Assembly (NCBI GenBank): GCA_964478715.1
Contig: CAYZIY010000001.1
Location: 149,196-213,195 of the forward strand
Length of the DNA: 64,000 nt
Source of the DNA: an uncultured Planctomycetales bacterium
GTDB taxonomy: Bacteria; Omnitrophota; Gorgyraeia; Zapsychrales; JBDRMG01
Direction: 5' to 3'
In this document: positions 6,729-31,451 of the stretch, piece by piece
How the letters are laid out: each line of letters opens with the position of its first letter
How positions within the stretch are numbered: the stretch's first letter is position 1
The notes under the pieces: model-generated
Told to the model about the DNA's origin: nothing
The model's database searches: none
Seen by the model: the letters and a program-made list of their open reading frames with translations, nothing else
Made by a program: the position numbers and the translations under genes

Positions 6729-7104
6729 AAAAAAGATTCTTCTGGTGGATGATGAAGAGGATATGGTTTATGCTGTGCGTCTGCAGCTCGAATCCAACGG
6801 CTATCAGGTGAGCGTGGCGCAAGACGGTAAGACTGCTTTAGAAAAGGCCCGCAGCGAAAAACCAGATTGTATGATTCTTGATGTTATGCTTCCTAAGATC
6901 GACGGTTATAAAGTCTGCCGGATGTTAAAATTCGACGAGAAATATCAAAAGATCCCCGTTATTCTTTTTACGGCCAGGGGCCAGAAGGCCGATGAGCAGG
7001 TGGGCTATGAAGTCGGGGCCGATGCCTATTTGACCAAACCCTTTGATCCCGATAAACTGCTTTCAAAAATCAATGAGCTGCTTAAGACAAAAGATACCTC
7101 ATGA
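6721..7104 (+). CDS. Single-domain response regulator (CheY-like receiver)
   Basis: DDEED acidic pocket, phospho-acceptor D in MILDVMLP, conserved T and K (LFTARGQ...YLTKPF). Confidence 0.85.
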   Translation: MSKKKILLVDDEEDMVYAVRLQLESNGYQVSVAQDGKTALEKARSEKPDCMILDVMLPKIDGYKVCRMLKFDEKYQKIPVILFTARGQKADEQVGYEVGADAYLTKPFDPDKLLSKINELLKTKDTS

Positions 7105-8795
7105 GTGATTTTCCCCGTAGAGAAAGAGAATTGATCGATCTGCTTTTAAAAGAAAAGCTGATCAACGAAGACATGCTCAATCAGGCTCGAGAGGAGACCC
7201 AAAAGACGGGTTTAAGTGTGATGCGGGCTTTAGAGAAACTCGGCTTCGTGGTGGATGATAATCTTTTAAAGATTCAGGCCGAGGCGCTGGGCGTGCCCTA
7301 TATGGATGTGGCCGATTATCAGATCGACAAGCAGTTGATCAAGGCCCTTCCTAAGGATGGGGCTCAAAAATTCAAAGCCGTACCGCTTTTTAAAATCGGA
7401 CAGAATTTAACCGTGGGCATGCTCGATCCGCAGGATGTCCTGGCCTTGGATGAGATACGTAAAATCTCAGGCATGGAAACGGTCGAGCCCGTTTTGATTT
7501 CCGAGCGCGGTTTTCAGCGGGTGATCGATGTGTTTTACGGGGCGCAAGATTCTCTGCAGGCTTTGATCAGCGCTATTGAGCGCGATCAGAAAATCCAGAA
7601 GCAGGGACGCAGTCTCACCGAGATCGCCGAAGAGGCTCCGGTGATCAAATTGGTGAATGCGATTTTCTTAGAGGCCATGCGCTTAAGGGCCTCAGATATC
7701 CATATTGAACCCGAAGAAGATTATGTCCGGATTCGCTTAAGGATCGATGGGGTTTTAAGGGAGTTGATTCAGATGCCGAAATCGATTCAAAGTCTGGTGA
7801 CCTCACGCGTCAAAATTCTCTCGACGATGGATATTGCCGAGTCGCGCCGGCCGCAGGACGGGCGTATCCAGCTGGAGCTTGAGGACAAACAGCTTGACGT
7901 GAGGGTTTCCACATTTCCGACGATTCACGGCGAGAATGTGGTGATGCGTCTGCTTGAAAAATCTTCCGTTTTATTCGGGCTTAAAGATATCGGTTTTGGA
8001 GAAAAAGAACTTAAGGCCTTTGAGCAGGTGATCCAAAGGCCCTACGGGATTATTTTCATTACCGGTCCGACGGGAAGCGGTAAAACCACGACCCTTTATT
8101 CGGCGCTGACAACCATCAGCTCGATGGAAAAAAATATCGTCACAATCGAAGATCCGGTAGAATATGAGCTTCCCTTGATCCGCCAGACCCAGGTCAATCC
8201 TAAGGCGAATGTCACCTTCTCTAACGGTCTGCGCAGTATTTTGCGGCAGGATCCGGATGTGATTATGGTCGGGGAAATCCGCGATAAGGAAACCGCCGAG
8301 ATCGCGATTCAGGCGGCCTTGACTGGCCATCTGGTTTTCTCCACCTTGCATACCAATGATGCGACATCCGCCTTGACGCGCTTGATTGATATGGGTGTTG
8401 AGCCGTTTCTGATTGCCACCTCCACGATCGGTATTTTGGCACAGCGTCTGGTGCGCGAAATCTGTCCGAAATGTAAAGAAGAATTCAAGCCGCCCAAAGA
8501 ATTGCTTAAAGATCTGGGATTGAGGGTGAGCGCGAAATCCAAGGATTCCTTCTATAAAGGAAAGGGATGTCCGGCTTGTCATCAGACAGGCTATTTAGGG
8601 CGCAGCGGCATTTTTGAGCTGCTTTTGATCGATGAAGATATCCGCCGGATGACCGAAGAAAGAAAATCCACGGATGATATCAAGAAGAAGGCTCTTAGCC
8701 AAGAGATGATTACGCTTAAAGAAAACGGGCTTAAAAAAGCACGCCAAGGAATCACGACGATTGAGGAAGTGCTGAGAGTAACGGAGGTTGTATAA
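7101..8795 (+). CDS. GspE/PilB-family type II secretion / type IV pilus assembly ATPase (copy 1)
   Basis: N-terminal GspE_N-like domain, Walker A GPTGSGKTTT, Asp and His boxes, C-terminal tetracysteine CPKC...CPAC. Confidence 0.9.
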   Translation: MSDFPRRERELIDLLLKEKLINEDMLNQAREETQKTGLSVMRALEKLGFVVDDNLLKIQAEALGVPYMDVADYQIDKQLIKALPKDGAQKFKAVPLFKIGQNLTVGMLDPQDVLALDEIRKISGMETVEPVLISERGFQRVIDVFYGAQDSLQALISAIERDQKIQKQGRSLTEIAEEAPVIKLVNAIFLEAMRLRASDIHIEPEEDYVRIRLRIDGVLRELIQMPKSIQSLVTSRVKILSTMDIAESRRPQDGRIQLELEDKQLDVRVSTFPTIHGENVVMRLLEKSSVLFGLKDIGFGEKELKAFEQVIQRPYGIIFITGPTGSGKTTTLYSALTTISSMEKNIVTIEDPVEYELPLIRQTQVNPKANVTFSNGLRSILRQDPDVIMVGEIRDKETAEIAIQAALTGHLVFSTLHTNDATSALTRLIDMGVEPFLIATSTIGILAQRLVREICPKCKEEFKPPKELLKDLGLRVSAKSKDSFYKGKGCPACHQTGYLGRSGIFELLLIDEDIRRMTEERKSTDDIKKKALSQEMITLKENGLKKARQGITTIEEVLRVTEVV

Positions 8796-8833
8796 AAACA
8801 TGAAAGCTCTAAATCCTAAGTTCTAAGGAAAAG

Positions 8834-10048
8834 ATGCCTACTTATCAATATAAAGCCAGAACGCAGGACGGGAAATCCATCCAGGGACTCATGGGAGCCG
8901 ACAGCGAACAGGCCGTGGCCTCTAAATTAGAAGCCATGGGGCATTTGCCGATCGATATCCGCCTGCTTAAGGAAAAAACTGAGGGGCCGTCATTTTTCGA
9001 CCGTTTTAAAAGAGTCAGCTTTGAGGATTTGAATCTTTTTACCCGTCAGCTGGCCACGCTCCAGCGGGCGGGCATTCCGCTTTTAACCAGTCTCGGGTCT
9101 CTTAAAGAGCAGGCCGCCAATTATCAGCTAAAAAAAACAATCGAGGTGATTATCCGGGATGTCGAAGGCGGTTCTTCCTTATCGGGGGCGCTTGAGCGTC
9201 ATCCCGTTGTTTTTTCTGCCCTTTATGTCAATATGGTGCGCTCCGGAGAAATGTCGGGGCAACTGCCTGAGGTCTTAAACCGTTTGGCGACTTTAGGAGA
9301 ACACGACGAGAAAATCCGGCGGCAGATCAGCGCGGCGATGCGCTATCCGGCCATTGTGGTCGCGGCTATGATTATCGGCTTTATGGTTCTCATTGTTTTT
9401 GTTATGCCGCGTTTTATCAACATCTACGGGCAATACAATACCGCTTTGCCTATGCCGACGCAGATTATGATTGGTCTTAGTGTCATCACAAAAGAATTTT
9501 GGTGGCTTCTGTTGGGGCTTTTGGCTATTGCTATTTTTCTTTTTAAAAGTTATAAAGAATCAACGTCAGGCCGGAAAGTAACCGACGAGATCAAGCTGAA
9601 GATTCCTGTTTTCGGTCCTTTGATGCATAAACTTTTGATGTCGCGGTTTTGCCGGGCCACAGGGACGCTTTTAAAAAGCGGCGTGCCGATTTTACAGATA
9701 CTGGAATTAAACAAGGCAGGCGCGGGCAATGTGAAATTGGGCGAGACCATTGATCAGGTGATTCAAAGCGTGAAAGAAGGGAAGGGCATGGCGGAGCCGA
9801 TGAAACAAAGCGGATGCTTCCCGGTCATCGTTACCCAGATGGTCTCTGTCGGTGAGGAGAGCGGCCGGCTGGATGAATTGATGATTTATGCCTCGGATTA
9901 TTATGATCTTCTGATTGATCACACCATTAAAAATCTGGTGTCCTTGATTGAGCCGCTTCTGATCTTTGTGCTGGGCATTGCCGTTTTGTTTATGGCCCTG
10001 GGCATTTTTATGCCGATGTGGAATTTGATGCAATTGTTTAAAAGATAA
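8834..10048 (+). CDS. PilC/GspF-family inner-membrane platform protein (copy 1)
   Basis: Two repeated T2SSF domains, three TM segments, ~400 aa typical size. Confidence 0.88.
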   Translation: MPTYQYKARTQDGKSIQGLMGADSEQAVASKLEAMGHLPIDIRLLKEKTEGPSFFDRFKRVSFEDLNLFTRQLATLQRAGIPLLTSLGSLKEQAANYQLKKTIEVIIRDVEGGSSLSGALERHPVVFSALYVNMVRSGEMSGQLPEVLNRLATLGEHDEKIRRQISAAMRYPAIVVAAMIIGFMVLIVFVMPRFINIYGQYNTALPMPTQIMIGLSVITKEFWWLLLGLLAIAIFLFKSYKESTSGRKVTDEIKLKIPVFGPLMHKLLMSRFCRATGTLLKSGVPILQILELNKAGAGNVKLGETIDQVIQSVKEGKGMAEPMKQSGCFPVIVTQMVSVGEESGRLDELMIYASDYYDLLIDHTIKNLVSLIEPLLIFVLGIAVLFMALGIFMPMWNLMQLFKR

Positions 10049-10066: not shown

Positions 10067-10095
10067 TTGTCAAAGATTTTCGGCTTGAGTATAAT
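10067..10095 (+). promoter_or_regulatory. Near-consensus sigma70 promoter (TTGTCA-17-TATAAT) driving the major pilin gene
   Basis: ttgtca at 10067-10072, 17-nt spacer, tataat at 10090-10095; followed by RBS aggagg at 10121-10126 and ATG at 10136. Confidence 0.5.
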
Positions 10096-10135
10096 GAAAA
10101 GTAGTTCAACAAACAATATAAGGAGGAGGGACGGT

Positions 10136-10558
10136 ATGAAGAGAGGTCGAAGCGGTTTTACATTGATCGAAATCATCATGGTGATCATTATTCTGGGCAT
10201 TCTGGCGGCGGTGGCGATTCCGCGGTTTACGAACTTGCAGCAAAATGCCTTGGATGCTGCCGAGCAAGGTGTTGTAGGTGGTGTGCGGGCGGGGATCTCA
10301 ACTGTCAGAGCAAGCAATTTGGCCAATGGGGTCACGCCGGCGATACCGGCCACATTAGACGGTCTTGCAGCTGGAACAACATGCTCAACAGCAAATCCCT
10401 GTTTTACCAATGTTCTCGACCAGGGCGGTATTACCGACGGGAATTGGATTAAGGTGAATGACACAACTTATACATCTCAAACGGGAGCCAATCAAAGTAC
10501 TTATACTTATAATCCTGCGACAGGAACATTTTTGTGTACCGCGGGCTCTTGTCCGTAA
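10136..10558 (+). CDS. Type IV pilin (probable major pilin), prepilin peptidase-dependent
   Basis: MKRGRSG/FTLIEIIMVIIILGILAAVAIP class-III signal with G-1, F+1, E+5; 4 Cys in the C-terminal half (two disulfide loops); Thr/Ser-rich. The ORF-track start at 10061 includes the promoter; 10136 has a proper RBS. Confidence 0.85.
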   Translation: MKRGRSGFTLIEIIMVIIILGILAAVAIPRFTNLQQNALDAAEQGVVGGVRAGISTVRASNLANGVTPAIPATLDGLAAGTTCSTANPCFTNVLDQGGITDGNWIKVNDTTYTSQTGANQSTYTYNPATGTFLCTAGSCP

Positions 10559-10580
10559 AATGATCGATGAGGGTTGCTAG

Positions 10581-10618
10581 CCCCCCCCGCACCAATTCAT
10601 TGGTGCGGGGGTTTTTTT
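10581..10618 (+). terminator. Rho-independent terminator after the pilin gene
   Basis: GC-rich stem cccccgcacca / tggtgcggggg with a 6-nt loop, followed by ttttttt. Confidence 0.75.
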
Positions 10619-10664: not shown

Positions 10665-11501
10665 ATGAAAAGGCTACACTCTCCAAAAGGCTTGACGCTG
10701 ATTGCCTCTGTTATGCTTCTGGTTTTCGCCTCCATCATCATTCTTGGATTAAGCACATTTGTTATTCAGCGTCTTTCACTGGGCAATACCCGGCTGATTC
10801 AGACTCAGGCTTTTTACGATGCCCGGGCCGGTATTTATCAGTCACTTTATGATTACCGTCTGCGTCAGATGACCGGAGACGGATTCTTCCATTGGGGCCG
10901 CACGGATCTGGATTCCGATAATTTTTATTATATTGCCGGCGACTGGTCCAATATTTTGCTGGTCGATACCACCGAAAGCCGTCTTAATGGCGCGAAGAAT
11001 CTTGAGGGTTGGACTTTAAAGAATGTGACGGATTTCACTGGCTTGACAATCACCGGGATGACGGTAACCTGGCAGGGAGGATGTAAATCCTGCCGGCTTC
11101 GGCGTATTCGTTTTAAAAATAGAAATTTCTGGCAAAGCGGTCAGGGTGAGTATTCTCCGGTCAAGGCCGTATTCAAAAGACCTTTTTCATTAAGAGATCC
11201 CGATCTTGTGGAGCGCAATTCTTTGGAATTTACCGGCGATATGTCCGGGGCGAGAATCGAGGCTGAATTTCTGATGGGAGATAGCACAAGTAAAACCGTG
11301 ACTCTTTATCCGGCTGGCGTCAGTAAGCCGACATTTACGATTGTCTCAATGGGGCGCACGATTGCGTCGCCTTTGTTTCGCACGATGGAGGCCGTGTATA
11401 ATCCCCAAGAGGACCGGATCGTTGATCAGAGAGAAACCGAGGAATTATTGAAAATTCCTCAATCAGGGGAGATGCCTGGTGAGATTATTCAGAGACCCTA
11501 A
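10665..11501 (+). CDS. PilX-N-domain-like pilus assembly / minor pilin-associated protein
   Basis: N-terminal hydrophobic segment GLTLIASVMLLVFASIIILGL followed by QAFYDARAGI, resembling the PilX N-terminal domain. Confidence 0.55.
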   Translation: MKRLHSPKGLTLIASVMLLVFASIIILGLSTFVIQRLSLGNTRLIQTQAFYDARAGIYQSLYDYRLRQMTGDGFFHWGRTDLDSDNFYYIAGDWSNILLVDTTESRLNGAKNLEGWTLKNVTDFTGLTITGMTVTWQGGCKSCRLRRIRFKNRNFWQSGQGEYSPVKAVFKRPFSLRDPDLVERNSLEFTGDMSGARIEAEFLMGDSTSKTVTLYPAGVSKPTFTIVSMGRTIASPLFRTMEAVYNPQEDRIVDQRETEELLKIPQSGEMPGEIIQRP

Positions 11502-11883
11502 CAGCGGCTTTAGTTTAATCGAATTGATCATGACCATTGTGGTGGTCGGTGTGATCGCGGTTCCCCTCGCCCTTTTGATCGGTCAATACATCGATAGTGT
11601 TTTTGATTCCCATGAATATTTGATTACTATGAATCTGGCCCGCATGGAAATGGAGCGGGTTTACAATATGCCCTTTGACCGGGTTGTCTCAACGACCTTT
11701 CCTCAATATCAGGGTTACGCCTACGAGCTGGAGCGCCGGGTCACGGTTGTGCCAACCACGCTTCCGGTGCCCGCGGATTCATCGTTGAAAATCATTAAGG
11801 TTTTTGTGCGTCGGCCGCGTTCGGCTGAAACCATCCTCGGACTGTCCACCCGCCTAACGGGAGTCTTGGCCTATGGTCCGTAA
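11479..11883 (+). CDS. Minor (pseudo)pilin with prepilin-type N-terminal cleavage/methylation domain
   Basis: NSG/FSLIELIMTIVVVGVIAV with E+5. Confidence 0.75.
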   Translation: MRLFRDPNSGFSLIELIMTIVVVGVIAVPLALLIGQYIDSVFDSHEYLITMNLARMEMERVYNMPFDRVVSTTFPQYQGYAYELERRVTVVPTTLPVPADSSLKIIKVFVRRPRSAETILGLSTRLTGVLAYGP

Positions 11884-12433
11884 AAAGGCGGCCGGTTTTA
11901 CTTTAATAGAGGCCATTATGGTGATGATCATCATCGCTGTTTTGGTCGGAGGTGGTGTTGTTTTCTTAACCGGTTTTGTGCAAAACACCTTGTTTGTTTC
12001 CCATCAGCTGAGCACGGATCTTTTGGCGTCGGATTGTATGGAAATAATGATCGAAGGCGACAGTCAAGCCAAGGGATTGCGGTTTTCCCGCTCTATTTCC
12101 TGGGCCAGAGATCATATGCTTTCTTTTATTAATCAAGACGGAGACAGAGTGATCTACATCTATTCTCCCTTTAACGGAAGGATTTACCGGTGGACGCCCT
12201 ATGTTTACGGTATCATTCCGTCTTATAATAACGCAAGTTCGCCCGTGACGATTCTTGTAAATAATGATAAACTATTTACTTACTATGATGAAAATGAGCA
12301 GATTACAAGCGATCCTCTGCGTATTCGGGCTGTCAAAATCGAATTTATTGCCCAAACCGGTTCTGGAGATTACGCGCAGGGGCAGGGACAAACGCATTTG
12401 ACTTCGGCGGTGGCCGTCAAAAGACTCGAATGA
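11873..12433 (+). CDS. Minor (pseudo)pilin with prepilin-type N-terminal domain
   Basis: AAG/FTLIEAIMVMIIIAVLVGG with E+5. Confidence 0.75.
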   Translation: MVRKKAAGFTLIEAIMVMIIIAVLVGGGVVFLTGFVQNTLFVSHQLSTDLLASDCMEIMIEGDSQAKGLRFSRSISWARDHMLSFINQDGDRVIYIYSPFNGRIYRWTPYVYGIIPSYNNASSPVTILVNNDKLFTYYDENEQITSDPLRIRAVKIEFIAQTGSGDYAQGQGQTHLTSAVAVKRLE

Positions 12434-14076
12434 TTCAAATAGAGACTATTCAACAAAAAATCTTGGAACTTAAAGATTCCCTCATCCGGGATTCGGGCCA
12501 GGTACTGGTGATCGATTTCAATGAGCTGTCGATCGAGATTGCCTGGTGCGCGACAGCCCCTGGCGCGTTATCGCTGTTGGCTTTTGATGAGGCCGAAATC
12601 GGCCAGAATCAGAAACAGAATGTGCCCAGTTTCATCAGCCAGTTTATCGAACGTCATCAGATCGATGAGAAAAATATCCTGATTACAATCAGTGACAGCG
12701 CCAGTTTTCATTTGAAACAGCTCAGTCTTCCGCTTTTGCCCGAACGGGAAATTACTAAAGCGGCCAAATGGCAGCTTAAAGATGAGGTTACCTTTGATCT
12801 CGAGGATGCGGTTCTCGCCTGGCAGCCGATTCGGGTGTTTAGCGATGAAAAAGGAGCCAAACGTCAGGATCTGACCTTTATCCTTGTTCAAAAGAAAATC
12901 ATTCAGCAATATATTTCTTGTGTGCTCGACTGCGGGCTGAATCCGCTTTCGATCAGCAACAGTTGTTTTGATTTTTCTTATCTTCTCGGTGAGCTGCCCC
13001 ACGCGGCAGCCAACTGTGCCATTCTCAATATTGAGAAAAATGATTCGCTTTTGACGTTTTATCTAGATCACAAAGTGTGCTTTATGCGGCGTTTACCGAT
13101 TTCAACCGAGAAAATGATTCGCGCTTTGATGGGAACGCTGGTTTCCGAAAAAGGAAAAATTTCCCTAACCCGCACCCAGGCCGATGATATCTTAGAGGCA
13201 ATGGGAATTCCGCTCTCAGAGTACGGGCCGGTCACCGCAGGGCTTGACTCCTCGCGGTTCATGTCTTTGATGCGCCCTTTGCTTGAGGCTTTGACGCGGG
13301 AGGTTAAGTTTTCTTTTGAATATTTCTCGTCCCGCTTTCAGATGAAGAAAATTGATCAGCTTTATGTGACCGGTCGCGGGGCGAGTGTCAAGAATCTTGA
13401 TCATTATATCGAGAAGGAATTATCCCTAACGGTTGACCGGCTGGGTTTGCCGAGCTCTCTGAAACTGGAATCGGAGGGAAAGCCGTGGAGTTTAAAGAAG
13501 CAGAATCAGATGACCAAGGTGATCAGCGCGGTGCTTTCGCGGGGCCGGGCTGTAAATTTACTGCCGCGAGAGCAGAGGTTAAAAAGAACAAAAGATATCC
13601 AGAAGATCGTTTTGCGGCTGATGGCAATCTCTTCTACGGCTATTTTTTTGATGATGTTTTTCATGATCCGGATTCAGATACGGGATTATCAAAACAGGGT
13701 CAAGATGGCGGAAATGCATTTGAAAACCGTCGGCCGAATCAATGATTTAACCAAGGATATCTTCGCTAAACAGCAGTTGATAGAGTTGATCCGAGGGCCG
13801 ACCGTCCCTGCCGAGGGGGTTCTTCGGGCTTTAAGCGATCTGACTCCGGCTGAAATTATTCTTAGGGAAATCGATCTTGATCAAAACAGCCAGATGCTTC
13901 GCATTAAGGGTGTGATAACCAGCAGCGATGAGCAGGCGCAGGGGATCTTGTTCAACTTTATTCGCGGCCTTGAGGAATCGCTGTTTTTTATTGAGGCGAG
14001 TTTGACTTCAGCTCAAAGAACAGGACTGGTGCAGGAATTTGAAATCAGTTGTGATTTAATTTCCCGAATGCCATGA
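12430..14076 (+). CDS. PilM-like actin-fold cytoplasmic domain fused to a TM segment and PilN-like periplasmic domain (GspL-like architecture)
   Basis: PilM signature region LPLLPEREITKAAKWQLKDEVTFDLEDAVLAWQPI; TM helix IVLRLMAISSTAIFLMMFFMI at about residue 395; periplasmic C-terminal domain. Confidence 0.7.
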   Translation: MIQIETIQQKILELKDSLIRDSGQVLVIDFNELSIEIAWCATAPGALSLLAFDEAEIGQNQKQNVPSFISQFIERHQIDEKNILITISDSASFHLKQLSLPLLPEREITKAAKWQLKDEVTFDLEDAVLAWQPIRVFSDEKGAKRQDLTFILVQKKIIQQYISCVLDCGLNPLSISNSCFDFSYLLGELPHAAANCAILNIEKNDSLLTFYLDHKVCFMRRLPISTEKMIRALMGTLVSEKGKISLTRTQADDILEAMGIPLSEYGPVTAGLDSSRFMSLMRPLLEALTREVKFSFEYFSSRFQMKKIDQLYVTGRGASVKNLDHYIEKELSLTVDRLGLPSSLKLESEGKPWSLKKQNQMTKVISAVLSRGRAVNLLPREQRLKRTKDIQKIVLRLMAISSTAIFLMMFFMIRIQIRDYQNRVKMAEMHLKTVGRINDLTKDIFAKQQLIELIRGPTVPAEGVLRALSDLTPAEIILREIDLDQNSQMLRIKGVITSSDEQAQGILFNFIRGLEESLFFIEASLTSAQRTGLVQEFEISCDLISRMP

Positions 14077-22832: not shown

Positions 22833-24641
22833 ATGGTTGAAAAAAGACGATTGCTGGGAGAATATTTAATCGAGCAGGGGATTATCAGTCCCGACCAGCT
22901 CAAGACGGCGATCGAGGAGGGCAAGCGCTCGAATCGCAAGATCGGGGACGTGCTGATCAAGCTGGGTTACGCCAAGGAAGACGATATTGTAAAGGCCTTA
23001 AGCGAGCAGTTGGGGATTCCCTTTATCGATGTCGACACCTACCAGTTTGATCCTGCAAGCGTGGCTTTGATTCCTTTTGATGCGGCTTTTAAGTTGCGCG
23101 TGATCGGGGTTTACCAAATCGCGAATTCTCTGACCGTGGCCATGACCGACCCGCTCAATGTCACGGTGATCGACGAGCTCGAGAAGCTGACGGGGCTGAC
23201 GATCAACCCTGTTTTTGCCACCCCGACGGGAATCAAAAAAGCGATTCAGAAATATTACTCTCGCGCGGGGTCCTCTGCGACCGGTTTGGGTGTGTCGGGG
23301 GGCTCGGGTACTGCGGCCACTTCGGACTCTGCGGAAACGCTGGACATTTCGGGTGCTTCAGGTACTTCGGGTGTTTCAGGAGTAGCAGACGCGACTGGCG
23401 AGGCTGGCGCGGCTAAAACGGGCGGAATCTCCGCCGGCCGAAGCGACGACTTACCGAAACTAAGAGAACAGGCCGCCCAGGCGCCTGTGATCAAGCTGGT
23501 CAATAAAATCATCGAAGACGCCGTAACGCTTAAGGCCAGCGACGCGCACTTAGAGCCGCAGGACAAGCGATTTCTCTGCCGCTACCGGGTCGACGGAATT
23601 TTGCAGGATTTTATTGAACTGAAAAAAGACCTGGAGCTGGCCACGATCTCACGAATCAAAATCATGGCCAACATCAACATTGCCGAAAAGCGCCTGCCTC
23701 AGGACGGCCGGATTCAAACTCAGGTGAAAGGCAAAGAGATCGATTTGAGAGTGGCCACCTTTCCTACTATTCACGGAGAGCACGTGGCGATTCGCGTTTT
23801 AGATAAATCGACCGGGATACTCAGTTTAGACGAACTGGGTCTGAAAGGGGATCTCTTGAGACAATTTCAGTCTTTGATCACCAAACCGCACGGGCTGTTT
23901 CTGGTGACCGGTCCCACCGGAAGCGGAAAATCCACGACCTTGTATTCGGTTTTGAACACCGTCAATGACAAAAAGAAAAATATTATCACGCTCGAAGATC
24001 CGGTGGAGTACACGATTGAGTATATTCATCAGTCGCAGGTCAATGTAAAAGCCGGTTTGACTTTTGCCGTGGGTTTGCGCTCGATTGTCCGCCTGGATCC
24101 CGACATTATTATGATCGGAGAAATCCGGGACCGGGAGACGGCCGAAATCGCCATTCACGCGGCTTTAACCGGGCACCTGGTTTTCTCGACGCTTCACACA
24201 AATGACGCGCCCAGCGCCTGCGCCCGTCTGATCAATATCGGCTTGGAGTCTTATCTGTTGGCCAGTTCCCTGACCGGCGTGGTGGCCCAGCGGCTGGTCA
24301 GAAAATTGTGCGATCAATGCAAAAAACCTCACAAGCCTGAGCCCCGGGAAATTGAAAGTCTCGGGATGAATCCGTCCGATTTTCAAAACGCACAGATCTT
24401 CCGGGAAAACGGTTGCAAGGCCTGCCGGCAGACCGGCTACAGCGGACGGATCGGTATCTTTGAGATTCTTGTTCCCAATGAAAAAATACGCACACTGATT
24501 ACCCAAAAGGCCTCTTCCAAAGACCTGATGAAAGAAGCCAGGACCTTAAATATGACAACCCTGCTGGAAGACGGTATAGAAAAAATCCGCCTAGGAATCA
24601 CATCGATTTCGGAAATTTTAAGGATTACCGAAGAATCATAA
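22833..24641 (+). CDS. GspE/PilB-family secretion ATPase (copy 2) with MshEN-like N-terminal tandem motifs and a G/S/A/T-rich linker
   Basis: Walker A GPTGSGKSTT, tetracysteine CDQC...CKAC; N-terminal tandem RLLGEYLIEQGII...Q and RKIGDVLIKLGYA...Q motifs; low-complexity insert about 23265-23450. Confidence 0.9.
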   Translation: MVEKRRLLGEYLIEQGIISPDQLKTAIEEGKRSNRKIGDVLIKLGYAKEDDIVKALSEQLGIPFIDVDTYQFDPASVALIPFDAAFKLRVIGVYQIANSLTVAMTDPLNVTVIDELEKLTGLTINPVFATPTGIKKAIQKYYSRAGSSATGLGVSGGSGTAATSDSAETLDISGASGTSGVSGVADATGEAGAAKTGGISAGRSDDLPKLREQAAQAPVIKLVNKIIEDAVTLKASDAHLEPQDKRFLCRYRVDGILQDFIELKKDLELATISRIKIMANINIAEKRLPQDGRIQTQVKGKEIDLRVATFPTIHGEHVAIRVLDKSTGILSLDELGLKGDLLRQFQSLITKPHGLFLVTGPTGSGKSTTLYSVLNTVNDKKKNIITLEDPVEYTIEYIHQSQVNVKAGLTFAVGLRSIVRLDPDIIMIGEIRDRETAEIAIHAALTGHLVFSTLHTNDAPSACARLINIGLESYLLASSLTGVVAQRLVRKLCDQCKKPHKPEPREIESLGMNPSDFQNAQIFRENGCKACRQTGYSGRIGIFEILVPNEKIRTLITQKASSKDLMKEARTLNMTTLLEDGIEKIRLGITSISEILRITEES

Positions 24642-24655
24642 GACCACAGGAATGC

Positions 24656-27600
24656 ATGAAGATCAACAACTGCCGCTTAATGTATTGCTTGCTCAGCCGA
24701 CCCTGCGGTTGCAGAAATGCTTTTTGTCGGCTTTGGCCCCGATTATTTATGGCAGGGGCTGTCTTGCTTTTGATCTCTTTGTGCCTGCCTGAAAATCTTT
24801 ACGCTTACTTGACCGGTGACGCGTGGGATTACGAGCAACAGATCACGGTCACCAATCCCAATGCCGCGTCGCTCAGCAATTACCAGATTCTTGTCGCATT
24901 CGACAGCGCATCCTTGATTACGGCCGGACAGATGGCCGCAGACGGCCGGGATCTGCGATTTACCTCAGCGCAGAATGACGACGCGACCCTGTTGGATTAC
25001 TGGATCGAATCCGGCACGATCAATACGGATGCCACCTATGTTTGGGTTAAGGTGCCTTCACTGGCGGCCTCATCATCCGCGAACATTTACATGTATTACG
25101 GCAACGGAGCCGCACCCGCAGTCAGTTCGCTTGTCTCAACTTTCCGTTCCAGCGATCTCTTTTTATTGACAACCCGTGCCACCGACCAGACCCTGGCCGG
25201 CTACACGGATAATCACGATGAATTTGACGAAATTATTACGCGCATCGGGACGCCCGATTTCGCCGTAGACGGTTCCGGCTATGTGAATGCGGTCAATCAC
25301 AATGCGAATCCCTACGGCAGTTCGGAATACTATTTTTCCCGGTACCGTTTCTTATTTGTCCCTTCTTTAACAGGCACATATTATTTTGGGACCAATTCTG
25401 ACGATGCTTCCGAAATCCTGATCAACAGCGCCGATCAGGACTTAACGCATAATGTGATCGCTTCCTGGTACGGCGGGCATGGAATATCCGGCAGTTTTAA
25501 TCACAACAGTCCGGTTTCTTTAAACGCCGGCTACGGCTATTGGATCGAATACCGGATGACCGAATGGCGCGGCGGGCAGCTCAGCCGGATGGGCATTTTG
25601 CCGCCGGCCGGTTCGTGGCAGATCGTTAACAGCACCAATTTTAGCGGACAGCTGTTCGCCCGAGAGTATGCCGACCAAGAACCGACGGTCAGTTTTCCGC
25701 CTTCCAAACTGGTCTTTACAACCAGCGAGCAAACTATTAATACAGACGGCGTTTCGGGTGTGATCACCATTGAGACTCAGGATCAATTCAGCCATGTGGC
25801 GGTCGCTTCAGCTGATACCGCCATCACGCTAAGCTCGAACTCTTCAACAGGCCAATTTAGCTTAACGGCGGATCCGTTTACGCCTGTCAGTTCCGCGATC
25901 ATTTCTTCCGGTGAAAGTTCTGTCAATCTTTATTATCGCGACAGTTCTTCGGGAACTTTTACCATTTCCGTTTCATCAGCCGGCTTGACCCCGGCGAGTC
26001 AGACAATGAATGTGCAGAATCTAAGCGCGCAGTGGGACCATCGGATTCCCGTTATTATCAATAATGCGGATTGCACTGACGCGCTTAACGATTATCAGGT
26101 TTTAGTGACATTAAACACAGCCGCGATTATCGCCCAGGGAAACATGCAGGCCGACGGAGCGGATATCCGTTTTACGGATTCCGATGACGCGACCTATTTA
26201 TCCTACTGGATCGAATCCGATACCATCAATTCGTCTGATACCTATATTTGGGTAAAAGTTCCCTCCGTCCCGGCTTCGGCGAGCAAGACGATTTATTTAT
26301 ACTACGGAAATGCTTCCGCTACTGAGGTTAGCTCCATTTCTCAGACTTTTAGCGCGGATCAGATCTATTTGTTAACCACGCGCGCTACGGACAGCGGTCT
26401 GGTTGGCTATAGCGACGATCACTCGGAATTTGACCAGATTGTCGACAGGATCGGGCAAGCTGGCTTCACTATTGACGGTACAGGGTATGTCGAGCGCATC
26501 GATCATAATGCCAATCCGTTTGGAAGCGATGAATATTATTTTTCCCGCTACCGTTTTCTCTTTACGCCTGCGGTAACCGGCGAATACTATTTCGGCACCG
26601 ACAGCGACGACGCTTCCGAGATTTTGGTTAACCGCGCGGACGAAGACCAGGCGCACAATGTGATCGCTTCCTGGTACGGCGGGCACGGCACGGCCGGTAA
26701 TTTCAACCATAATGGGGCTGTGAATCTGGAGGCGGACAAAGGCTATTGGGTCGAATACCGCATGACCGAATGGCGCGGCGGGCAGCTCAGCCGGATGGGT
26801 GTTTTGGAACCGGGTTCCTCCTTTAAAACACTGACCGCGGATAATTTTCCGGGGCAAATCTTCACGCGGAAATACTCAACCTGTCTGCCGAGCTCAACCG
26901 AGCAATTTCCGATCACCCGGATTGCCTTTATATCTCCATCGCAATCCATCTATGAAGATCGGGTTTCAAATCAGATAACGATCGAGACGCAGGATGTAAA
27001 CGGGGATCCGGTCGCGGTCACAGAAGACACAACGATCAATCTGCAAACGACATCTTCGAAAGGAGAATTCAGTCTTAATGAGTCACCGTTTCTTGCCGTT
27101 CATTCCGTTACGATCAGCGCCGATTCAAGCAGCGCGAGTTTTTATTACCGGGACCGTGAAGCAGGCTCCTATACCTTAAGCGCATTGGAGTCTCCCGGTC
27201 GCGGCTGGGACGACGGCCAGCAGACTATTGAAGTTCTTGTTTTTGATTATATCGGAAGCTACCAATATCCCGTGACGATCACCAATCCCAACGCTGAGGA
27301 TCTATCCGATTGCCAGGTGAAAGTGACCGTGGACACGGCAAGCTTGATTGCAGAAGGGAAAATGCTGGCCGATGGCTCGGATATCCGCTTTACCGACGAG
27401 GACGATGCGACGCTGTTGTCTTATTGGATCGAATCCGATACAATGAACACCGCGCAAACTTATCTGTGGGTCAGAGTTCCGTTTCTTGCGTCTTTATCCA
27501 ATAAAACCATCTATATGTATTACGGTAATCCAGGGGCAGCCGCGGTCAGTTCGATAGCTTCGACATTTCAAGAGGACCAGATTTATCTGACGACCACCCG

Positions 27601-29800
27601 CGCTACCAATGCCGCTTTGGCCGGCTACACCGATAACCATAATGAATTTGATCAGATCATCGCGGGGATCGGAGCGGCCGGTTTTGAAATTGACGGATCC
27701 GGTCTGGTGGATGCCCTGGACCACAATGCCAATCCGTTTGGAAGCGATGAATATTATTTTTCCCGCTACCGTTTTCTCTTTACGCCTGCGGTAACCGGCG
27801 AATACTATTTCGGCACCGACAGCGACGACGCTTCCGAGATTTTGGTTAACCGCGCGGACGAAGACCAGGCGCACAATGTGATCGCTTCCTGGTACGGCGG
27901 GCACGGCACGGCCGGTAATTTCAACCATAATGGGGCTGTGAATCTGGAGGCGGACAAAGGCTATTGGGTCGAATACCGCATGACCGAATGGCGCGGCGGG
28001 CAGCTCAGCCGGATGGGTGTTTTGCCGCCGGCCGGTTCGTGGCAGACGCTAAACAGCAGTCATTTCGCAGGCGAATTTTATTGCCGCAACTGCACCGACA
28101 GCAATCTCACCGTGACCGAAGGCGAGGAGATCGGGAATATTGCCAAGCTGGAATTCACCACTTTGCCGCAAACCGTTGTTCAGGGTTTTTCCACGGAATT
28201 GATGTCCGTTCAGACACAGGATGCATCCAGCGTGGCCAGGCCCGTTACTGCCGATACACAAATATTTCTCGAATCCTCGTCTTTGCTCGGGCAGTTCGCG
28301 CCGGAAGACGATCCGGCTAACTGGAGCGCCGATAATACCTTAACGGTTACGATTCCCTCCGGTCAAGATACGGCACGCTTTTACTACAGGGATTTTGAAG
28401 TTGGTCTTCCGACGATCTCCGCGTCCGAATTTCCAACTCAGGGATGGCAGGAGGCCACCCAGCAGCAGACCATTAACAGCGCGGTCAATACATTTCAGGT
28501 GACAGCCGGTGCGGCTCAGGTGACAGGGGAAGCGTTTGCGCTTTCGATCACCGCCATTGACCAAAACGGTAACGTGGCCGTTGATTACAATGATCCGGTT
28601 GATCTTTCCGTGAATTATGTGAGTCCGTTAACAGGCACGGGAGCGCTTTCCGTTGCCGGCGCTACGGCCTTTGTCAACGGGATCGCGGTTTTGAATAATG
28701 TTACTTATTCGAACTGCGGGGTCATCACCATGACGGTAACCAAAAGCGATGATCCGGCTAAAACCGGTTCATCTAGCAATATTTCTTTTGCGCCGGATTC
28801 GTTTTCTTTAGAGTTGTCCGGCCTGGATTTCCTAGCGGCCCACACGGTCAATAAATCCTTCACGCTGAGCGCTACCGCCTTGGATGCGGCGGGAGCTGTT
28901 TGCACAGGCTATCAAGGCCCGGCCTCGCTTTCGGTCAATACTATTGATCCGCCGGCTGATCAGGGGGCCAGCCTTTCGCCCGAGCAATTGGGGAACACGC
29001 TTTGGAATGAAGGAACAGCCGAGATCGCGGAGGCCACTTTCGATCGCTACGGCGAGGTTTCTTTGGTCATCAGCGATGACAATTTATCAACACAACAGGG
29101 GACATCGCAGGAGATTGTTTTTCTTCCCAAAGATTTCCTGGTCAACCTTTCGGATCCTCTGCCGGATAGAGATTTTTATTATACCCATGAACCCATTGAT
29201 ATTTCTGTTGGAGCCCGGGATGAAAACAATGAGCCCGTAGTTAATTATCAGGGGACCGTGGGCTTTGAGGGAACCAGTCTCAGTCTTCCCGAGACTTATA
29301 CATTCATCGATGACGAAGACGGCCGTCATGAGTTTTTGGATATCAGCAGTTCGTTGAGCTTTGAGGAAAAAACTTTAAATGTTTTTGATACGCAGTTTTC
29401 TTTTGTGCAAGGTGAGAGCGAGCCGATCACCGTCAAAGAGGCCCGGATTCAAGTTCTTCCTAACCGGGGTCCGGTGGGGAATCTGCCTTTGACTATTCAG
29501 ATTATTGACGAGGATGATCAGGTGATTGTTGAAGATAACAGCACCTTCTTTACCGTTGATCTTGAGGAATTCATTGATGACGGTTCGGCCACCTCTCATG
29601 CGCTCGGCAATCCCGTTGTGGTCACCGAAGGGACGGCCATGATTATTCTTAATGATGACCAGGCCGAGCAGGTGACGGTCACGCCTGATTCCACGCCCGG
29701 TCTTAAGCCCGTTGCCGGCATCGCCACTTTCGGAACGGTTTCAGGAACAGGGCTGGGTATCCAAATTTATCGAGAGCTAAAAGATGAGGTTGAACAATAA
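24656..29800 (+). CDS. Giant secreted protein (1714 aa): three tandem modules of DUF2341-like domain + PA14 domain, then bacterial Ig-like domains
   Basis: Three repeats each with ..DG.DIRFTD.DDAT.L.YWIES...Y.WVKVP..........IY.YYGN followed by a PA14-like core YYFSRYRF.F.P..TG.YYFGT.SDDASEIL.N; hydrophobic N-terminal region. Start codon uncertain (an internal Met at 24749 begins a signal-peptide-like segment). Confidence 0.8.
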   Translation: MKINNCRLMYCLLSRPCGCRNAFCRLWPRLFMAGAVLLLISLCLPENLYAYLTGDAWDYEQQITVTNPNAASLSNYQILVAFDSASLITAGQMAADGRDLRFTSAQNDDATLLDYWIESGTINTDATYVWVKVPSLAASSSANIYMYYGNGAAPAVSSLVSTFRSSDLFLLTTRATDQTLAGYTDNHDEFDEIITRIGTPDFAVDGSGYVNAVNHNANPYGSSEYYFSRYRFLFVPSLTGTYYFGTNSDDASEILINSADQDLTHNVIASWYGGHGISGSFNHNSPVSLNAGYGYWIEYRMTEWRGGQLSRMGILPPAGSWQIVNSTNFSGQLFAREYADQEPTVSFPPSKLVFTTSEQTINTDGVSGVITIETQDQFSHVAVASADTAITLSSNSSTGQFSLTADPFTPVSSAIISSGESSVNLYYRDSSSGTFTISVSSAGLTPASQTMNVQNLSAQWDHRIPVIINNADCTDALNDYQVLVTLNTAAIIAQGNMQADGADIRFTDSDDATYLSYWIESDTINSSDTYIWVKVPSVPASASKTIYLYYGNASATEVSSISQTFSADQIYLLTTRATDSGLVGYSDDHSEFDQIVDRIGQAGFTIDGTGYVERIDHNANPFGSDEYYFSRYRFLFTPAVTGEYYFGTDSDDASEILVNRADEDQAHNVIASWYGGHGTAGNFNHNGAVNLEADKGYWVEYRMTEWRGGQLSRMGVLEPGSSFKTLTADNFPGQIFTRKYSTCLPSSTEQFPITRIAFISPSQSIYEDRVSNQITIETQDVNGDPVAVTEDTTINLQTTSSKGEFSLNESPFLAVHSVTISADSSSASFYYRDREAGSYTLSALESPGRGWDDGQQTIEVLVFDYIGSYQYPVTITNPNAEDLSDCQVKVTVDTASLIAEGKMLADGSDIRFTDEDDATLLSYWIESDTMNTAQTYLWVRVPFLASLSNKTIYMYYGNPGAAAVSSIASTFQEDQIYLTTTRATNAALAGYTDNHNEFDQIIAGIGAAGFEIDGSGLVDALDHNANPFGSDEYYFSRYRFLFTPAVTGEYYFGTDSDDASEILVNRADEDQAHNVIASWYGGHGTAGNFNHNGAVNLEADKGYWVEYRMTEWRGGQLSRMGVLPPAGSWQTLNSSHFAGEFYCRNCTDSNLTVTEGEEIGNIAKLEFTTLPQTVVQGFSTELMSVQTQDASSVARPVTADTQIFLESSSLLGQFAPEDDPANWSADNTLTVTIPSGQDTARFYYRDFEVGLPTISASEFPTQGWQEATQQQTINSAVNTFQVTAGAAQVTGEAFALSITAIDQNGNVAVDYNDPVDLSVNYVSPLTGTGALSVAGATAFVNGIAVLNNVTYSNCGVITMTVTKSDDPAKTGSSSNISFAPDSFSLELSGLDFLAAHTVNKSFTLSATALDAAGAVCTGYQGPASLSVNTIDPPADQGASLSPEQLGNTLWNEGTAEIAEATFDRYGEVSLVISDDNLSTQQGTSQEIVFLPKDFLVNLSDPLPDRDFYYTHEPIDISVGARDENNEPVVNYQGTVGFEGTSLSLPETYTFIDDEDGRHEFLDISSSLSFEEKTLNVFDTQFSFVQGESEPITVKEARIQVLPNRGPVGNLPLTIQIIDEDDQVIVEDNSTFFTVDLEEFIDDGSATSHALGNPVVVTEGTAMIILNDDQAEQVTVTPDSTPGLKPVAGIATFGTVSGTGLGIQIYRELKDEVEQ
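26507..26806 (+). repeat. 300-bp direct repeat copy A inside the giant gene (PA14 core of module 2)
   Basis: Identical base-for-base to 27725-28024 by direct comparison. Confidence 0.9.
27725..28024 (+). repeat. 300-bp direct repeat copy B inside the giant gene (PA14 core of module 3)
   Basis: Identical to 26507-26806; offset 1218 bp. Confidence 0.9.
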
Positions 29801-30212
29801 GAACCGGGGTTTTACCTTTATCGAGCTGTTGATCACTCTTACGGTTTTAGCGATTTCTTTTCTGCCTTTGATGAATATGTATACCGTGATGATTGACCAA
29901 TCGGTATTTACCAGTGATCTGACATCAGCCCGCTATCTCGCTCAGGAGGAAATGGAGAAAATCAAGAATCGCAATCTCACGGTTCAACAGCTTAAAGAAA
30001 TGGGCGACCGCTGGCATCCGCCGCTTAATGAAAAAGCGCTCGTGTTAAACAAAGAACGCTGGAGGGTTTTAAGGACCATTGAGCCCACAGAACCCTTAAC
30101 GGTTAAAGTTCAGGTCTTCAAAGAAGCCGAACGGATTTCCCGAAAGGAACCCAAGCCGGTTGCCAGTCTTATCACCCTGATCGAAGATTTCCACTGGGCC
30201 ATTACCGATTAA
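29784..30212 (+). CDS. Minor pseudopilin with prepilin-type N-terminus
   Basis: NRG/FTFIELLITLTVLAISFLPL with E+5. Confidence 0.75.
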   Translation: MRLNNKNRGFTFIELLITLTVLAISFLPLMNMYTVMIDQSVFTSDLTSARYLAQEEMEKIKNRNLTVQQLKEMGDRWHPPLNEKALVLNKERWRVLRTIEPTEPLTVKVQVFKEAERISRKEPKPVASLITLIEDFHWAITD

Positions 30213-30218
30213 ACCAGA

Positions 30219-31451
30219 ATGCGAAAGACAAACAAAAACATTAACGGCGGTTTGATTTTAATAGAACTATTGATCGCTATTTCTATTGCGGCGGTTTTAA
30301 TCGGGGTCGTGGCCCTCACCATGAAAACAGTTTTTGATATCTATCATTTCGTGCAAAACGAAATGATACTACAGAAAGCCCTCGATGATTCATTGAAGAC
30401 GCTTTCCGACGGAGATTTCCGCAACTATGGGATCAAAGATTCCCTGGAAATCATTAAAGCCGGCCAAACATATCTTTCATTTGTCCCTCCCTGGGTCGAT
30501 GACAGCCACCGGGTTGACAATATGGCCGATCAGAGATTTAGACTCTCTGCTCCCTTTAAGGCCGGTTCCGGACTTCCTCTGGCCGAGGCCAGACCGTATG
30601 GCAAACAGCCCTGGCAGGTTGTGCCGCTTATTTTCTTTTTAAGAGAAACATCCAACGGGGCAATGGAAAAAGACCAGGCGATTATTGCCGCCGAACTCCC
30701 CCCGGGTACTCCGGTGCGCTTTATCTATCATCCCGACACCCGTACTATTCCTGATGCGAGAATGACTCTCCGCTTTTCCCCAGAGACCATCGCGCGCACC
30801 TACAGACAAAAAAAAGAGGTTTTCCCCAAAAGTGATTTCGGCCCTGTGGCCTTCAGAGATGTTTCATTGAAATATTTTGACAATGCCAACAACAGAATGG
30901 AAGCCGGCGCTTCAGGGGAAATCCCTGCGGCCGACATCCCTAAAATCACAGCTGTCAAGTTGAGTATCACGGCTCAGGCGGGGGGCAAGTCAAAGACGGG
31001 TCATGTTTTTATCAATTTGCGCAATACCCGTTCGGTGGGTTCCGGCTTGATTATCCGAAAGGGCGCCACGCTGCCTCTTCCGAATTCCCGCGATATCCGC
31101 GCTTTTAGTCTGCACAACATTATTGGCGTAAAGCCCGGCGGCCTTATCTCTTTATTGGCTCAGTCTGATGAAGGCAACAGCTGGAAAATCAATATCGAGC
31201 TGGATAGTGAGGGTAACAGGGAGCTGATCAAAGGTTATGGGGTGGAATATCCGGCCGGTTCCAATGTTTCGAGCCAGACACTTAATTTAAACACGGATCT
31301 TCCAATCAACTTCCTGAGCCTGGGAGGAAACGGCCGTTATGATTATGACCTTGACGATAATGTGGAAGATGTCGTAAACTTAAAAGGAAAGGTCAAGTTG
31401 ACGGTTTTGGAGATGGACGCCCAAGGGGCCGCGCTTTTCATCCGGCCGTGA
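30219..31451 (+). CDS. Large (410 aa) pseudopilin-like protein (GspK/PilY-like candidate)
   Basis: Prepilin-like N-terminus NGG/LILIELLIAISIAAVLIGVVAL with E+5; large periplasmic domain. Confidence 0.6.
   Translation: MRKTNKNINGGLILIELLIAISIAAVLIGVVALTMKTVFDIYHFVQNEMILQKALDDSLKTLSDGDFRNYGIKDSLEIIKAGQTYLSFVPPWVDDSHRVDNMADQRFRLSAPFKAGSGLPLAEARPYGKQPWQVVPLIFFLRETSNGAMEKDQAIIAAELPPGTPVRFIYHPDTRTIPDARMTLRFSPETIARTYRQKKEVFPKSDFGPVAFRDVSLKYFDNANNRMEAGASGEIPAADIPKITAVKLSITAQAGGKSKTGHVFINLRNTRSVGSGLIIRKGATLPLPNSRDIRAFSLHNIIGVKPGGLISLLAQSDEGNSWKINIELDSEGNRELIKGYGVEYPAGSNVSSQTLNLNTDLPINFLSLGGNGRYDYDLDDNVEDVVNLKGKVKLTVLEMDAQGAALFIRP

Follow-up and report, generated by a model that had tools for sequence, protein, structure and literature searches.

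Does a nearly gap-free run of paired genes of the type IV filament superfamily encode one apparatus or two, and to which of the known filament families does it belong? The question is raised by the locus at 4.8-31.5 kb of the window (the whole 64-kb stretch of DNA that was analyzed, positions 149,196 to 213,195 of contig CAYZIY010000001.1, assembly GCA_964478715.1), where 26 genes lie on the + strand in two cassettes termed set A (4.8-15.1 kb) and set B (15.2-31.5 kb). The two cassettes probably encode two independent type IV filament machines that go back to a single old duplication of an ATPase-platform core and are adjacent here by happenstance. The gene inventory given for 7.1-31.5 kb by an earlier interpretation of the DNA letters, referred to as the sequence-only reading, is confirmed, with all of its open reading frames (ORFs) present on the + strand at the positions it assigned and its family calls upheld by Pfam and NCBIfam, which were run on the annotated ORFs at ~0.4-52 kb; ORFs at 52-64 kb were compared with the locus's own proteins only, not with the family libraries. 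Its list lacks a 1714-aa protein with three DUF2341 domains and PA14, a MerR-like gene and a ParA-like gene, all of which are parts of set B in relatives, as well as two members of set A, the genes for the histidine kinase-PilZ protein (4815-6728) and the response regulator (6721-7104).

Kinship and conservation of the two cassettes

The cores of the two machines are formed by the following genes.

7101..8795, + strand: set A assembly ATPase (ATPase A), GspE/PilB superfamily, with a degenerate N-terminal MshEN motif (T2SSE 477 bits, MshEN 64.5 bits)
8834..10048, + strand: set A platform, GspF/PilC superfamily (two copies of T2SSF, 199 bits; GspF 361.6 bits)
20604..21827, + strand: set B platform (T2SSF 196.7 bits; GspF 381.5 bits)
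22833..24641, + strand: set B assembly ATPase (ATPase B), with an MshE-type N terminus that would bind cyclic di-GMP (c-di-GMP) (T2SSE 457 bits, MshEN 66 bits)

The pairing of ATPases and platforms in the sequence-only reading is borne out by Pfam, which finds T2SSE together with MshEN twice and T2SSF twice, and two distinct and complete inner-membrane machineries are encoded, as had been proposed. The ATPases of sets A and B are 43% identical and the platforms 37%, so that they are not recent duplicates, the possibility that had been named for checking; the orthologues of each copy are found separately in other genomes at 60-66% mean identity, with that copy standing alone there. Neighbor-joining trees (200 bootstraps) were built separately for the ATPase and the platform from the orthologues of both sets, the PilB and PilC proteins of metagenomic type IVa pilus (T4aP) loci with adjacent PilT, and a reference group composed of the GspE and GspF proteins named by the Prokaryotic Genome Annotation Pipeline in three plasmid type II secretion systems (T2SS), E. 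coli HofB/HofC, Deinococcus PilF, ComGA, one T4b-like ATPase, and PilT. Clade A and clade B each have 100% support and group with one another at 94% (ATPase) and 96% (platform), whereas the ATPase trees give 2% for A with GspE and 0% for B with GspE, A with PilB and B with PilB, and the platform trees give 0% for A or B with GspF. The sister relationship of A and B indicates that both machines descend from one duplication of the ATPase-platform core, and the ancestral lineage of both cores appears from these sequences to be neither the proteobacterial T2SS nor the sampled T4aP.

The family models lead to the same place. The model cut-offs (in bits) are 630.25 for GspE (TIGR02533), 675.65 for PilB (TIGR02538), 424 for GspF, 88.85 for GspG, 284.35 for PilQ (TIGR02515), 351.35 for GspD, 250.2 for MshL, 133 for PilM (TIGR01175), 60 for GspM, 22.8 for PilN, 22 for PilO, and 38 for the c-di-GMP motif model NF053729. 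ATPase A scores 617.5 bits on GspE, a narrow miss, and 613.4 bits on PilB; ATPase B scores 588.2 and 587.4 bits. Among solved structures both ATPases match PilF/PilB best (460-502 bits), slightly above GspE. The sequence-only reading, which called set A T2SS-like and set B T4aP-like, is therefore not sustained in this division, the GspE and PilB scores being nearly equal, the cut-offs missed, and A and B sister clades.

Each cassette is conserved as a unit without the other. A genome scan with an alignment of homologues of the set A PilM-PilN fusion gave 21 set A loci, whose titles name Omnitrophota/Omnitrophica in 13 cases, a "bacterium" in one, and "uncultured Planctomycetales/Planctomycetia" in seven (taken as mislabeled Omnitrophota). 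Set A is colinear in every one of these loci that spans it, and genes of set B are absent within ~9 kb. Close homologues of the PilM-PilN fusion are few, at ≤39% identity, one of them from an Omnitrophica WOR_2 metagenome-assembled genome; a profile search of 1.84 billion representatives places 929 representative clusters in the family at E ≤ 1e-30. For set B, ~15 metagenome loci were collected from the contigs of PilM-B relatives and a metagenome scan, and the cassette is colinear in L028-L031, L033, L034, L040-42, L044, L045, L055, L120, and L121, with a common core of [MerR]-ParA-PilM-PilN-PilO (~300 aa)-secretin-platform-pilin-~130 aa-ATPase. PilM-B itself defines a distinct group with ~26 relatives above 200 bits, after which scores fall to those of generic PilM. 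Where sequence upstream of set B exists (L028, L029/L034, L045, L055, L121), no set A genes are present in it. A-B adjacency is thus found in no sampled relative with sufficient flank (13 loci of set A, 6 of set B) and is peculiar to this genome among those sampled, which, together with a promoter-like site in front of set B, does not favor the single hybrid, co-regulated apparatus that had been suggested.

Composition of sets A and B

Set A is arranged in the order kinase-receiver-ATPase-platform-major pilin-278 aa-pilin-pilin-PilM/N-193 aa-151 aa, with no secretin in the cassette. Its other features are listed here; promoter-like sites in both sets are consensus matches only, at 11/12 positions.

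4815..6728, + strand: sensor kinase, PAS-HisKA-HATPase_c with a C-terminal PilZ domain (Pfam PilZ 51.8 bits, residues 527-629)
6721..7104, + strand: stand-alone CheY-like receiver overlapping the start of ATPase A (Response_reg 108.5 bits)
10067..10095, + strand: promoter-like site TTGTCA-17-TATAAT, 11/12, just 5' of the pilin gene
10136..10558, + strand: major pilin, leader MKRGRSG then FTLIE, mature 133 aa, 4 Cys (N_methyl 30 bits)
10584..10611, + strand: intrinsic-terminator-like hairpin just 3' of the pilin gene, 12-bp stem with 9 G-C pairs and a T-run, the strongest hairpin in the region
10665..11501, + strand: 278-aa protein with a prepilin-like N terminus without Glu5 (conserved in 16 loci, Gly9 invariant)
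11479..11883, + strand: minor pilin, 134 aa (N_methyl 25 bits; G then FSLIE at residue 10)
11873..12433, + strand: minor pilin, 186 aa (N_methyl 27.7 bits; G then FTLIE at residue 8)
12430..14076, + strand: PilM-PilN fusion, 548 aa (Pfam PilM_2 and PilN; PilN 20.3 bits, just below the 22.8 cut-off)
14073..14654, + strand: PilO/GspM-like bitopic protein, 193 aa (GspM E 2e-4, 20.9 bits against a cut-off of 60)
14621..15076 (gene caller start 14651), + strand: PilP/GspC-type protein, 151 aa, N-terminal transmembrane (TM) segment and C-terminal HR-like domain (T2SSC, T2SSB, Y4YQ_C, E 2e-3 to 5e-3)

The two regulatory genes at the head of set A recur with it. Orthologues of the kinase (563-746 bits) occupy the same position in L004, L011, and L019, and of the 20 related loci with an ATPase A gene, 15 have an orthologue of the receiver (136-186 bits) directly 5' of it, a 200-248-aa receiver-domain protein taking the place of the receiver in L015 and L027. 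The major pilin is conserved at the same position in 20 loci (90-168 bits); it has two Cys pairs and a Ser/Thr-rich C terminus as in surface pilins and scores 38 bits on GspG, below the cut-off. The promoter-like site and the terminator that surround its gene (10067-10611) form the arrangement that is classically seen for a major pilin with strong expression within an operon.

The set A alignment proteins are distinguished by the fusion of PilM to PilN. The AlphaFold2 model of the fused protein (mean predicted local distance difference test score (pLDDT) 80.4) is composed of a four-subdomain actin-like domain, a long TM/coiled-coil helix, and a periplasmic ferredoxin-like domain of the PilN type. 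The best Foldseek matches are the PilM structures 5eou, 2ych, and 3jc8 (E 1e-20 to 1e-23, TM-score 0.76-0.81), with cyto-EpsL/GspL (1yf5) far below them at E 5.5e-10, and the protein has no Pfam T2SSL match. The predicted cytoplasmic domain thus matches PilM far better than cyto-GspL, at odds with the "GspL-like" label the protein had been given; as modeled, it is a PilM-PilN fusion with the topology of GspL. The 193-aa protein keeps its place after PilM-PilN in 22 loci, and its family profile matches M. xanthus PilO (3jc8_O) over the full length with E 0.023, which weakly suggests a PilO/GspM-like protein. In the 151-aa family (n=20), T2SSB is detected in 8 members, T2SSC in 7, and CdsD_C in 5, all of the T2SSC and T2SSB hits being below cut-off, and the family profile has no matches among PDB sequences. 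Set A family profiles aligned by hhalign to the single E. coli Etp GspL, GspM, GspC, and GspK sequences give E 0.02-0.28, which is not significant.

Set B follows the order MerR-ParA-PilM-PilN-PilO/PilP-secretin-platform-major pilin-133 aa-ATPase-1714 aa-two minor pilins.

15153..15181, + strand: promoter-like site TTGACA-17-TATATT, 11/12, in the 180-bp gap between sets A and B
15256..15525, + strand: MerR-type small helix-turn-helix protein (MerR_1 44 bits), heading set B also in L031, L033, L044, L048, and L055
15536..16384, + strand: ParA/MinD-type ATPase overlapping the start of pilM (AAA_31 181 bits)
16344..17657 (gene caller start 16368), + strand: PilM with a ~75-aa N-terminal extension rich in Lys/Ser (PilM_2 150.9 bits; TIGR01175 166.3 bits, above cut-off)
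17667..18251, + strand: PilN (49.7 bits)
18264..19172, + strand: PilO with a C-terminal PilP/GspC-type HR-like domain (PilO 49.4 bits, residues 63-199; CdsD_C 28.6 bits, residues 244-288, of the CdsD_C/Y4YQ_C type)
19207..20601, + strand: the only secretin, 464 aa, with signal peptide, N0/STN, one Secretin_N and secretin domain (Secretin 167 bits)
21841..22446, + strand: major pilin, GspG-like, no Cys, mature 143-144 aa (N_methyl 28 bits, T2SSG E 7e-4, GspG 46.9 bits)
22418..22819, + strand: 133-aa protein with a prepilin-like N terminus without Glu5, candidate GspK/PilX-type (no Pfam or NCBIfam match)
24656..29800, + strand: secreted 1714-aa protein, Ser/Thr-rich and acidic, with three DUF2341 domains and PA14 (DUF2341 199.5 bits, PA14 40.4 bits; predicted Sec signal peptide)
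29784..30212, + strand: minor pilin, 142 aa (N_methyl 30 bits), with weak resemblance to the 134-aa pilin of set A (E 4e-6)
30219..31451, + strand: large minor-pilin-like protein, 410 aa (N_methyl 17.8 bits, sub-cut-off; N terminus GGLILIELLIA)

Orthologues of the ParA-like ATPase (268-324 bits) are found directly 5' of PilM in most set B loci that reach upstream, and the pair formed with the MerR-type gene recurs at the head of set B in several unrelated contigs. A ParA-like partner is familiar in Tad systems (TadZ/CpaE) and unusual next to PilMNOQ. The N-terminal extension of PilM-B (16344-16570) contains a motif, ...SIF..K.KR.SSLF, that is conserved throughout its group, whereas generic PilM has no extension. 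In place of the PilM-PilN fusion of set A, set B has separate PilM and PilN and a PilO that ends in an HR-like domain, and the differently fused alignment sets of the sequence-only reading are confirmed in this form. The PilO-B C terminus and the 151-aa protein of set A are homologues (E 7e-8) with a common motif RDPF...GI...AIIN...VIL; this supports the description as a PilO-PilP fusion and indicates that set A encodes a module of the secretin-docking type. An AlphaFold2 model of PilO-PilP made from the single sequence (the homologue search returned only the query) reaches a pLDDT of 48 and was not used.

The mature set B major pilin keeps scores of 160-203 bits from one set B locus to another, and its translation probably begins at the ATG of position 21928 or 22006. 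The 133-aa protein follows the pilin gene in set B loci at 118-141 bits and weakly resembles the set A 278-aa protein (E 2e-8). These two had been called a PilX-N-like pair, of which the mutual similarity and the prepilin-like N termini stand, while neither has a hidden Markov model match; for the 278-aa protein Pfam, NCBIfam, and PDB yield nothing, also when Pfam is run on all family members and the family profile is compared with PDB sequences. From the N-terminal motif both are candidate GspK/PilX-type tip pilins. The list of prepilins in the earlier reading is supported by N_methyl motifs at 10061/10136, 11479, 11873, 21841, 29784, and 30219, its single major pilin giving way to one major-pilin candidate in each set. 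The proposed single pilin pool is likewise replaced by one major pilin and three minor pilins per set.

The 1714-aa protein is a candidate pilus-associated adhesin or secreted cargo, and DUF2341 proteins also follow the set B ATPase in L030 and L045. The segment 3' of ATPase B is variable in relatives and contains DUF2341 proteins, uncharacterized proteins, or a kinase with a response regulator. In the window the giant gene and the distal minor pilins (24000-32000) have a G+C content of up to 0.51 and a GC skew near zero or slightly negative, compared with ~0.46 and a positive skew elsewhere.

Known systems, the secretin and rival readings

The T4aP machines of Myxococcus xanthus, Thermus thermophilus, and Pseudomonas aeruginosa resemble both sets in the preference of the ATPases for PilF/PilB structures and set B in the canonical order of PilM, PilN, PilO, PilP-type domain, and secretin. 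Set B has the T4aP alignment complex (PilM 166.3, PilN 49.7, and PilO 49.4 bits, with the HR-like C terminus), whereas in set A there are a PilM fold within the fusion, PilN at 20.3 bits, and a weak PilO-like call. Both sets differ from T4aP in that the PilB cut-off is missed (A 613.4, B 587.4 bits), as is that of PilQ (253.9 bits; Pfam Secretin is passed), and in that PilT and PilU are absent from the 64-kb window, where a comparison of all ORFs with the locus's own proteins reveals no third ATPase and hence no PilT, no second secretin, and no further pilin. Further differences are a single operon-like cassette instead of scattered loci, the fusions of PilM-PilN in A and PilO-PilP in B, the ParA-like and MerR-like genes heading set B and the PilZ kinase and receiver heading set A, and the separation of both ATPase clades from the sampled PilB with adjacent PilT.

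Set A resembles T2SS (E. coli Etp, Indioceanicola Gsp) in being a single operon in the order E-F-G-minor pilins-L-like-M-like, in the GspL topology of its fused alignment protein, in an HR-like-domain protein that may correspond to GspC, and in a GspK-like minor pilin without Glu5. It differs in scores under the GspE, F, G, D, and M cut-offs, in trees that reject grouping with GspE/GspF, in a fold that is PilM and not GspL, in a pilin with disulfide-type Cys pairs, and in the absence of secretin, GspH, PDZ domain, and pilotin from the cassette. On cut-offs, trees, and fold, membership of set A in the T2SS is rejected.

The third comparison is with the mannose-sensitive hemagglutinin (MSH) system of Vibrio (MshE/G/L/I-Q), in which MshI is a PilM/N-type fusion and MshQ a large DUF2341-type protein; a likeness of the 1714-aa protein to MshQ is at most tentative, with no NCBIfam match and with tblastn on plasmids giving only DUF2341 regions in MotA/TolQ/ExbB-family proteins. 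ATPase B has the MshE-type c-di-GMP-binding N terminus, whose motif is credited to PMC5013675 in PMC11656802, and ATPase A does not. A prepilin peptidase is not found in or beside the locus among annotated ORFs at ~0.4-52 kb, those at 52-64 kb having been compared only with the locus's own proteins, and MSH loci are likewise all without this enzyme (PMC6668835). The MacSyFinder MSH model makes MshA, E, G, L, and M mandatory (PMC6668835), whereas here the MshL model is missed (135 versus 250.2 bits), homologues of MshM and MshN are absent, there is no ExeA-like AAA or TPR (tetratricopeptide repeat) protein in the cassettes, and the fused PilM-N is in set A while the MshE-type ATPase is in set B. 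The generic type IV filament criterion (Denise et al. 2019, PMC6668835) is a GspE/PilB-type ATPase, a GspF/PilC-type platform, and a pilin with class III signal peptide encoded together; both sets qualify, with T2SSE, T2SSF, and N_methyl above Pfam cut-offs, although this is a residual class that names no family whereas A and B are each well-defined conserved families. By the tested criteria neither set is a member of the T2SS, canonical T4aP, or MSH families. Set A would work as a single-operon machine in the manner of T2SS/MSH, its alignment protein being fused, and set B as a PilMNOPQ machine of the T4aP kind driven by an MshE-type motor.

The secretin at 19207-20601 is the one Secretin/Secretin_N/STN protein of the locus, as the sequence-only reading had it, and scores 253.9 bits on PilQ, 229.8 on GspD, and 135 on MshL, all under cut-off. 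It is far closer to the secretins of set B cassettes (514-732 bits) than to set A-linked secretins (137-162 bits) and is therefore a set B component. Its end (20480-20601) has no counterpart of the ~85-aa TPR-like tail of the L028, L029, L030, and L045 orthologues, the platform gene starting 3 nt later. One Omnitrophota subclade (L014, L017, L020, L022, L025, and the P0009 contig) has its own secretin following set A; these proteins are 540-590 aa long with large inserts in the N-domain region and barrel (L014 12642-15343), and one or two extra small pilin-like ORFs lie between set A and the secretin, with a 682-aa TPR protein added in the P0009 contig.

Three other readings compete with that of two independent machines. 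A recent tandem duplication of a single pilus operon, rearranged afterwards, would account for the paired components and for A and B cores that are closest to one another in the trees, but the identities of only 43% and 37%, the orthologues of each copy standing alone in other genomes, and the different fusions, regulators, and secretin content of the sets leave it practically no chance; with these identities and the separate orthologue sets it was rejected. A division of labor, in which set A is a T2SS with a periplasmic pseudopilus pushing cargo and set B a surface type IVa pilus, is improbable. It draws on the set A gene order, which mirrors gspE-F-G-(H-K)-L-M in one operon, on the 617.5 bits of ATPase A, barely below the GspE cut-off, and on the pilMNO(P)Q order of set B. 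Against it, A groups with GspE in 2% and with GspF in 0% of trees, both sets miss the GspF, GspG, and GspD cut-offs, the fusion has the PilM fold, and PilT is absent from the window; moreover, of the two major pilins that of set A is surface-pilin-like (two Cys pairs, Ser/Thr-rich C terminus) and that of set B more GspG-like, and the large Sec-exported possible cargo is encoded by set B.

The remaining reading concerns the channel used by set A, which would have no secretin of its own in this genome and whose PilP/GspC-like protein would dock on the set B secretin at its N0 domain, so that two different inner-membrane platforms use a single outer-membrane pore and the adjacency of the sets is functional. 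It is consistent with a single secretin in the 64 kb, with the homology of the set A HR domain to the set B PilO-PilP C terminus, with the 9 of 13 set A loci (those with ≥8.8 kb downstream) that have no secretin nearby while the HR-domain protein is kept in all, and with the lack of a detectable terminator between the sets. It is rather unlikely, since the secretin count covers the 64-kb window and not the rest of the ~280-kb contig or the genome, the secretin dedicated to set A in one subclade is very different, A-B adjacency is not conserved, and co-adaptation is not seen in the HR domains, those of the window being 29% identical compared with a mean of 32% (sd 4%) for pairs across genomes. 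A corollary, that two differently regulated motors (A by phosphorelay/PilZ, B by c-di-GMP via MshEN) time-share one outer-membrane channel, is also doubtful; if true, nature would offer here a clear example of one outer-membrane pore serving two type IV filament systems.

Several points weigh against two independent machines brought together by happenstance. Set A has no secretin in the window and yet encodes the docking-type protein, which fits dependence on set B equally well. With no terminator-like site detected in the 180-bp gap after set A, read-through into set B is possible. The relatives are all distant (≤39% for PilM-PilN, ≤51% for PilM-B), so that adjacency may persist in close relatives outside the sample, and L030, the set B contig that is closest, has pilM at its very start and no sequence upstream of it. 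The contigs with set B only carry no phylum assignment, and the trees are neighbor-joining only, with a small reference set that has no MshE, chlamydial, or Bacteroidota systems.

Proposed working, regulation and neighboring genes

With the two independent machines as the preferred reading, each ATPase/platform pair would polymerize its own pilins on its own alignment complex. The set B filament would be extruded through the set B secretin when c-di-GMP is bound and would display or release the giant carbohydrate-binding-type 1714-aa protein for contact with other cells, the ParA-like ATPase perhaps positioning the machine by analogy with TadZ/CpaE. Set A would build a second filament, switched by phosphorelay/two-component control and c-di-GMP, and would depend for its channel on a secretin gene in another part of the genome or on the secretin of set B.

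The 24-residue MshEN motif for c-di-GMP binding, reportedly described by Wang et al. 2016, is present in 7 of the 8 B-clade ATPases and none of the 12 A-clade ATPases. In the same direction, ATPase B passes the model NF053729 at 65.2 bits and ATPase A fails it at 18.4 bits. The receiver precedes set A in nearly all loci, and the PilZ-bearing kinase is present in the window, L004, L011, and L019. We infer from these domains that both machines would answer to c-di-GMP, by different routes.

A contact role for set B fits the symbiotic or predatory lifestyle proposed for the Omnitrophota. These are uncultured ultra-small bacteria thought to attach to or prey on cells, with pilus-like machines and large surface proteins as the main candidates for host contact (PMC10066038; bioRxiv 10.64898/2026.06.07.730766). 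Clusters classed as T4aP by TXSScan are common in the phylum, often more than one per genome, and have been linked to symbiosis (PMC10066038), and T2SS/type IV pilus genes flank giant genes (bioRxiv 10.64898/2026.06.07.730766). Several extension ATPases serving separate machines, and multiple type IV filament systems in one genome, are ordinary (PMC11656802). No description of the two cassette architectures, their sister relationship, or the secretin-less set A was found in the literature searched. The survey-level "T4aP" is here resolved into two cassette families that are sisters. In one, PilM-PilN is fused, a secretin is absent, and control is by a two-component system plus PilZ; the other combines ParA-like and MerR-like genes, fused PilO-PilP, secretin, c-di-GMP ATPase, and an adjacent giant adhesin-like protein. 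The cassettes provide concrete units for phyletic profiling and for assigning attachment, secretion, or uptake, and show that the customary naming as T2SS or T4aP does not carry over to the Omnitrophota.

Outside the locus, a dense signaling cluster at 48348-58854 contains eight receiver-domain ORFs, a 1110-aa hybrid kinase, a MASE3-PAS protein, and a HAMP kinase. A DsbA-like thioredoxin-fold protein is encoded at 44463-45083; with four Cys in the set A pilin and none in that of set B, only the former would need disulfide formation. The region 33484-38375, preceded by Fur and DUF3179 genes, encodes DUF5320, a NifB/FeMo-cofactor-type domain, two MinD/ParA-4Fe4S proteins, and a pyridine nucleotide-disulfide oxidoreductase. 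At the other end of the window (394-2469), in keeping with its derivation from the Omnitrophota, lies an ADP-forming acetyl-CoA synthetase (TIGR02717-type, 513 bits), an enzyme noted as a marker of some Omnitrophia (PMC10066038).

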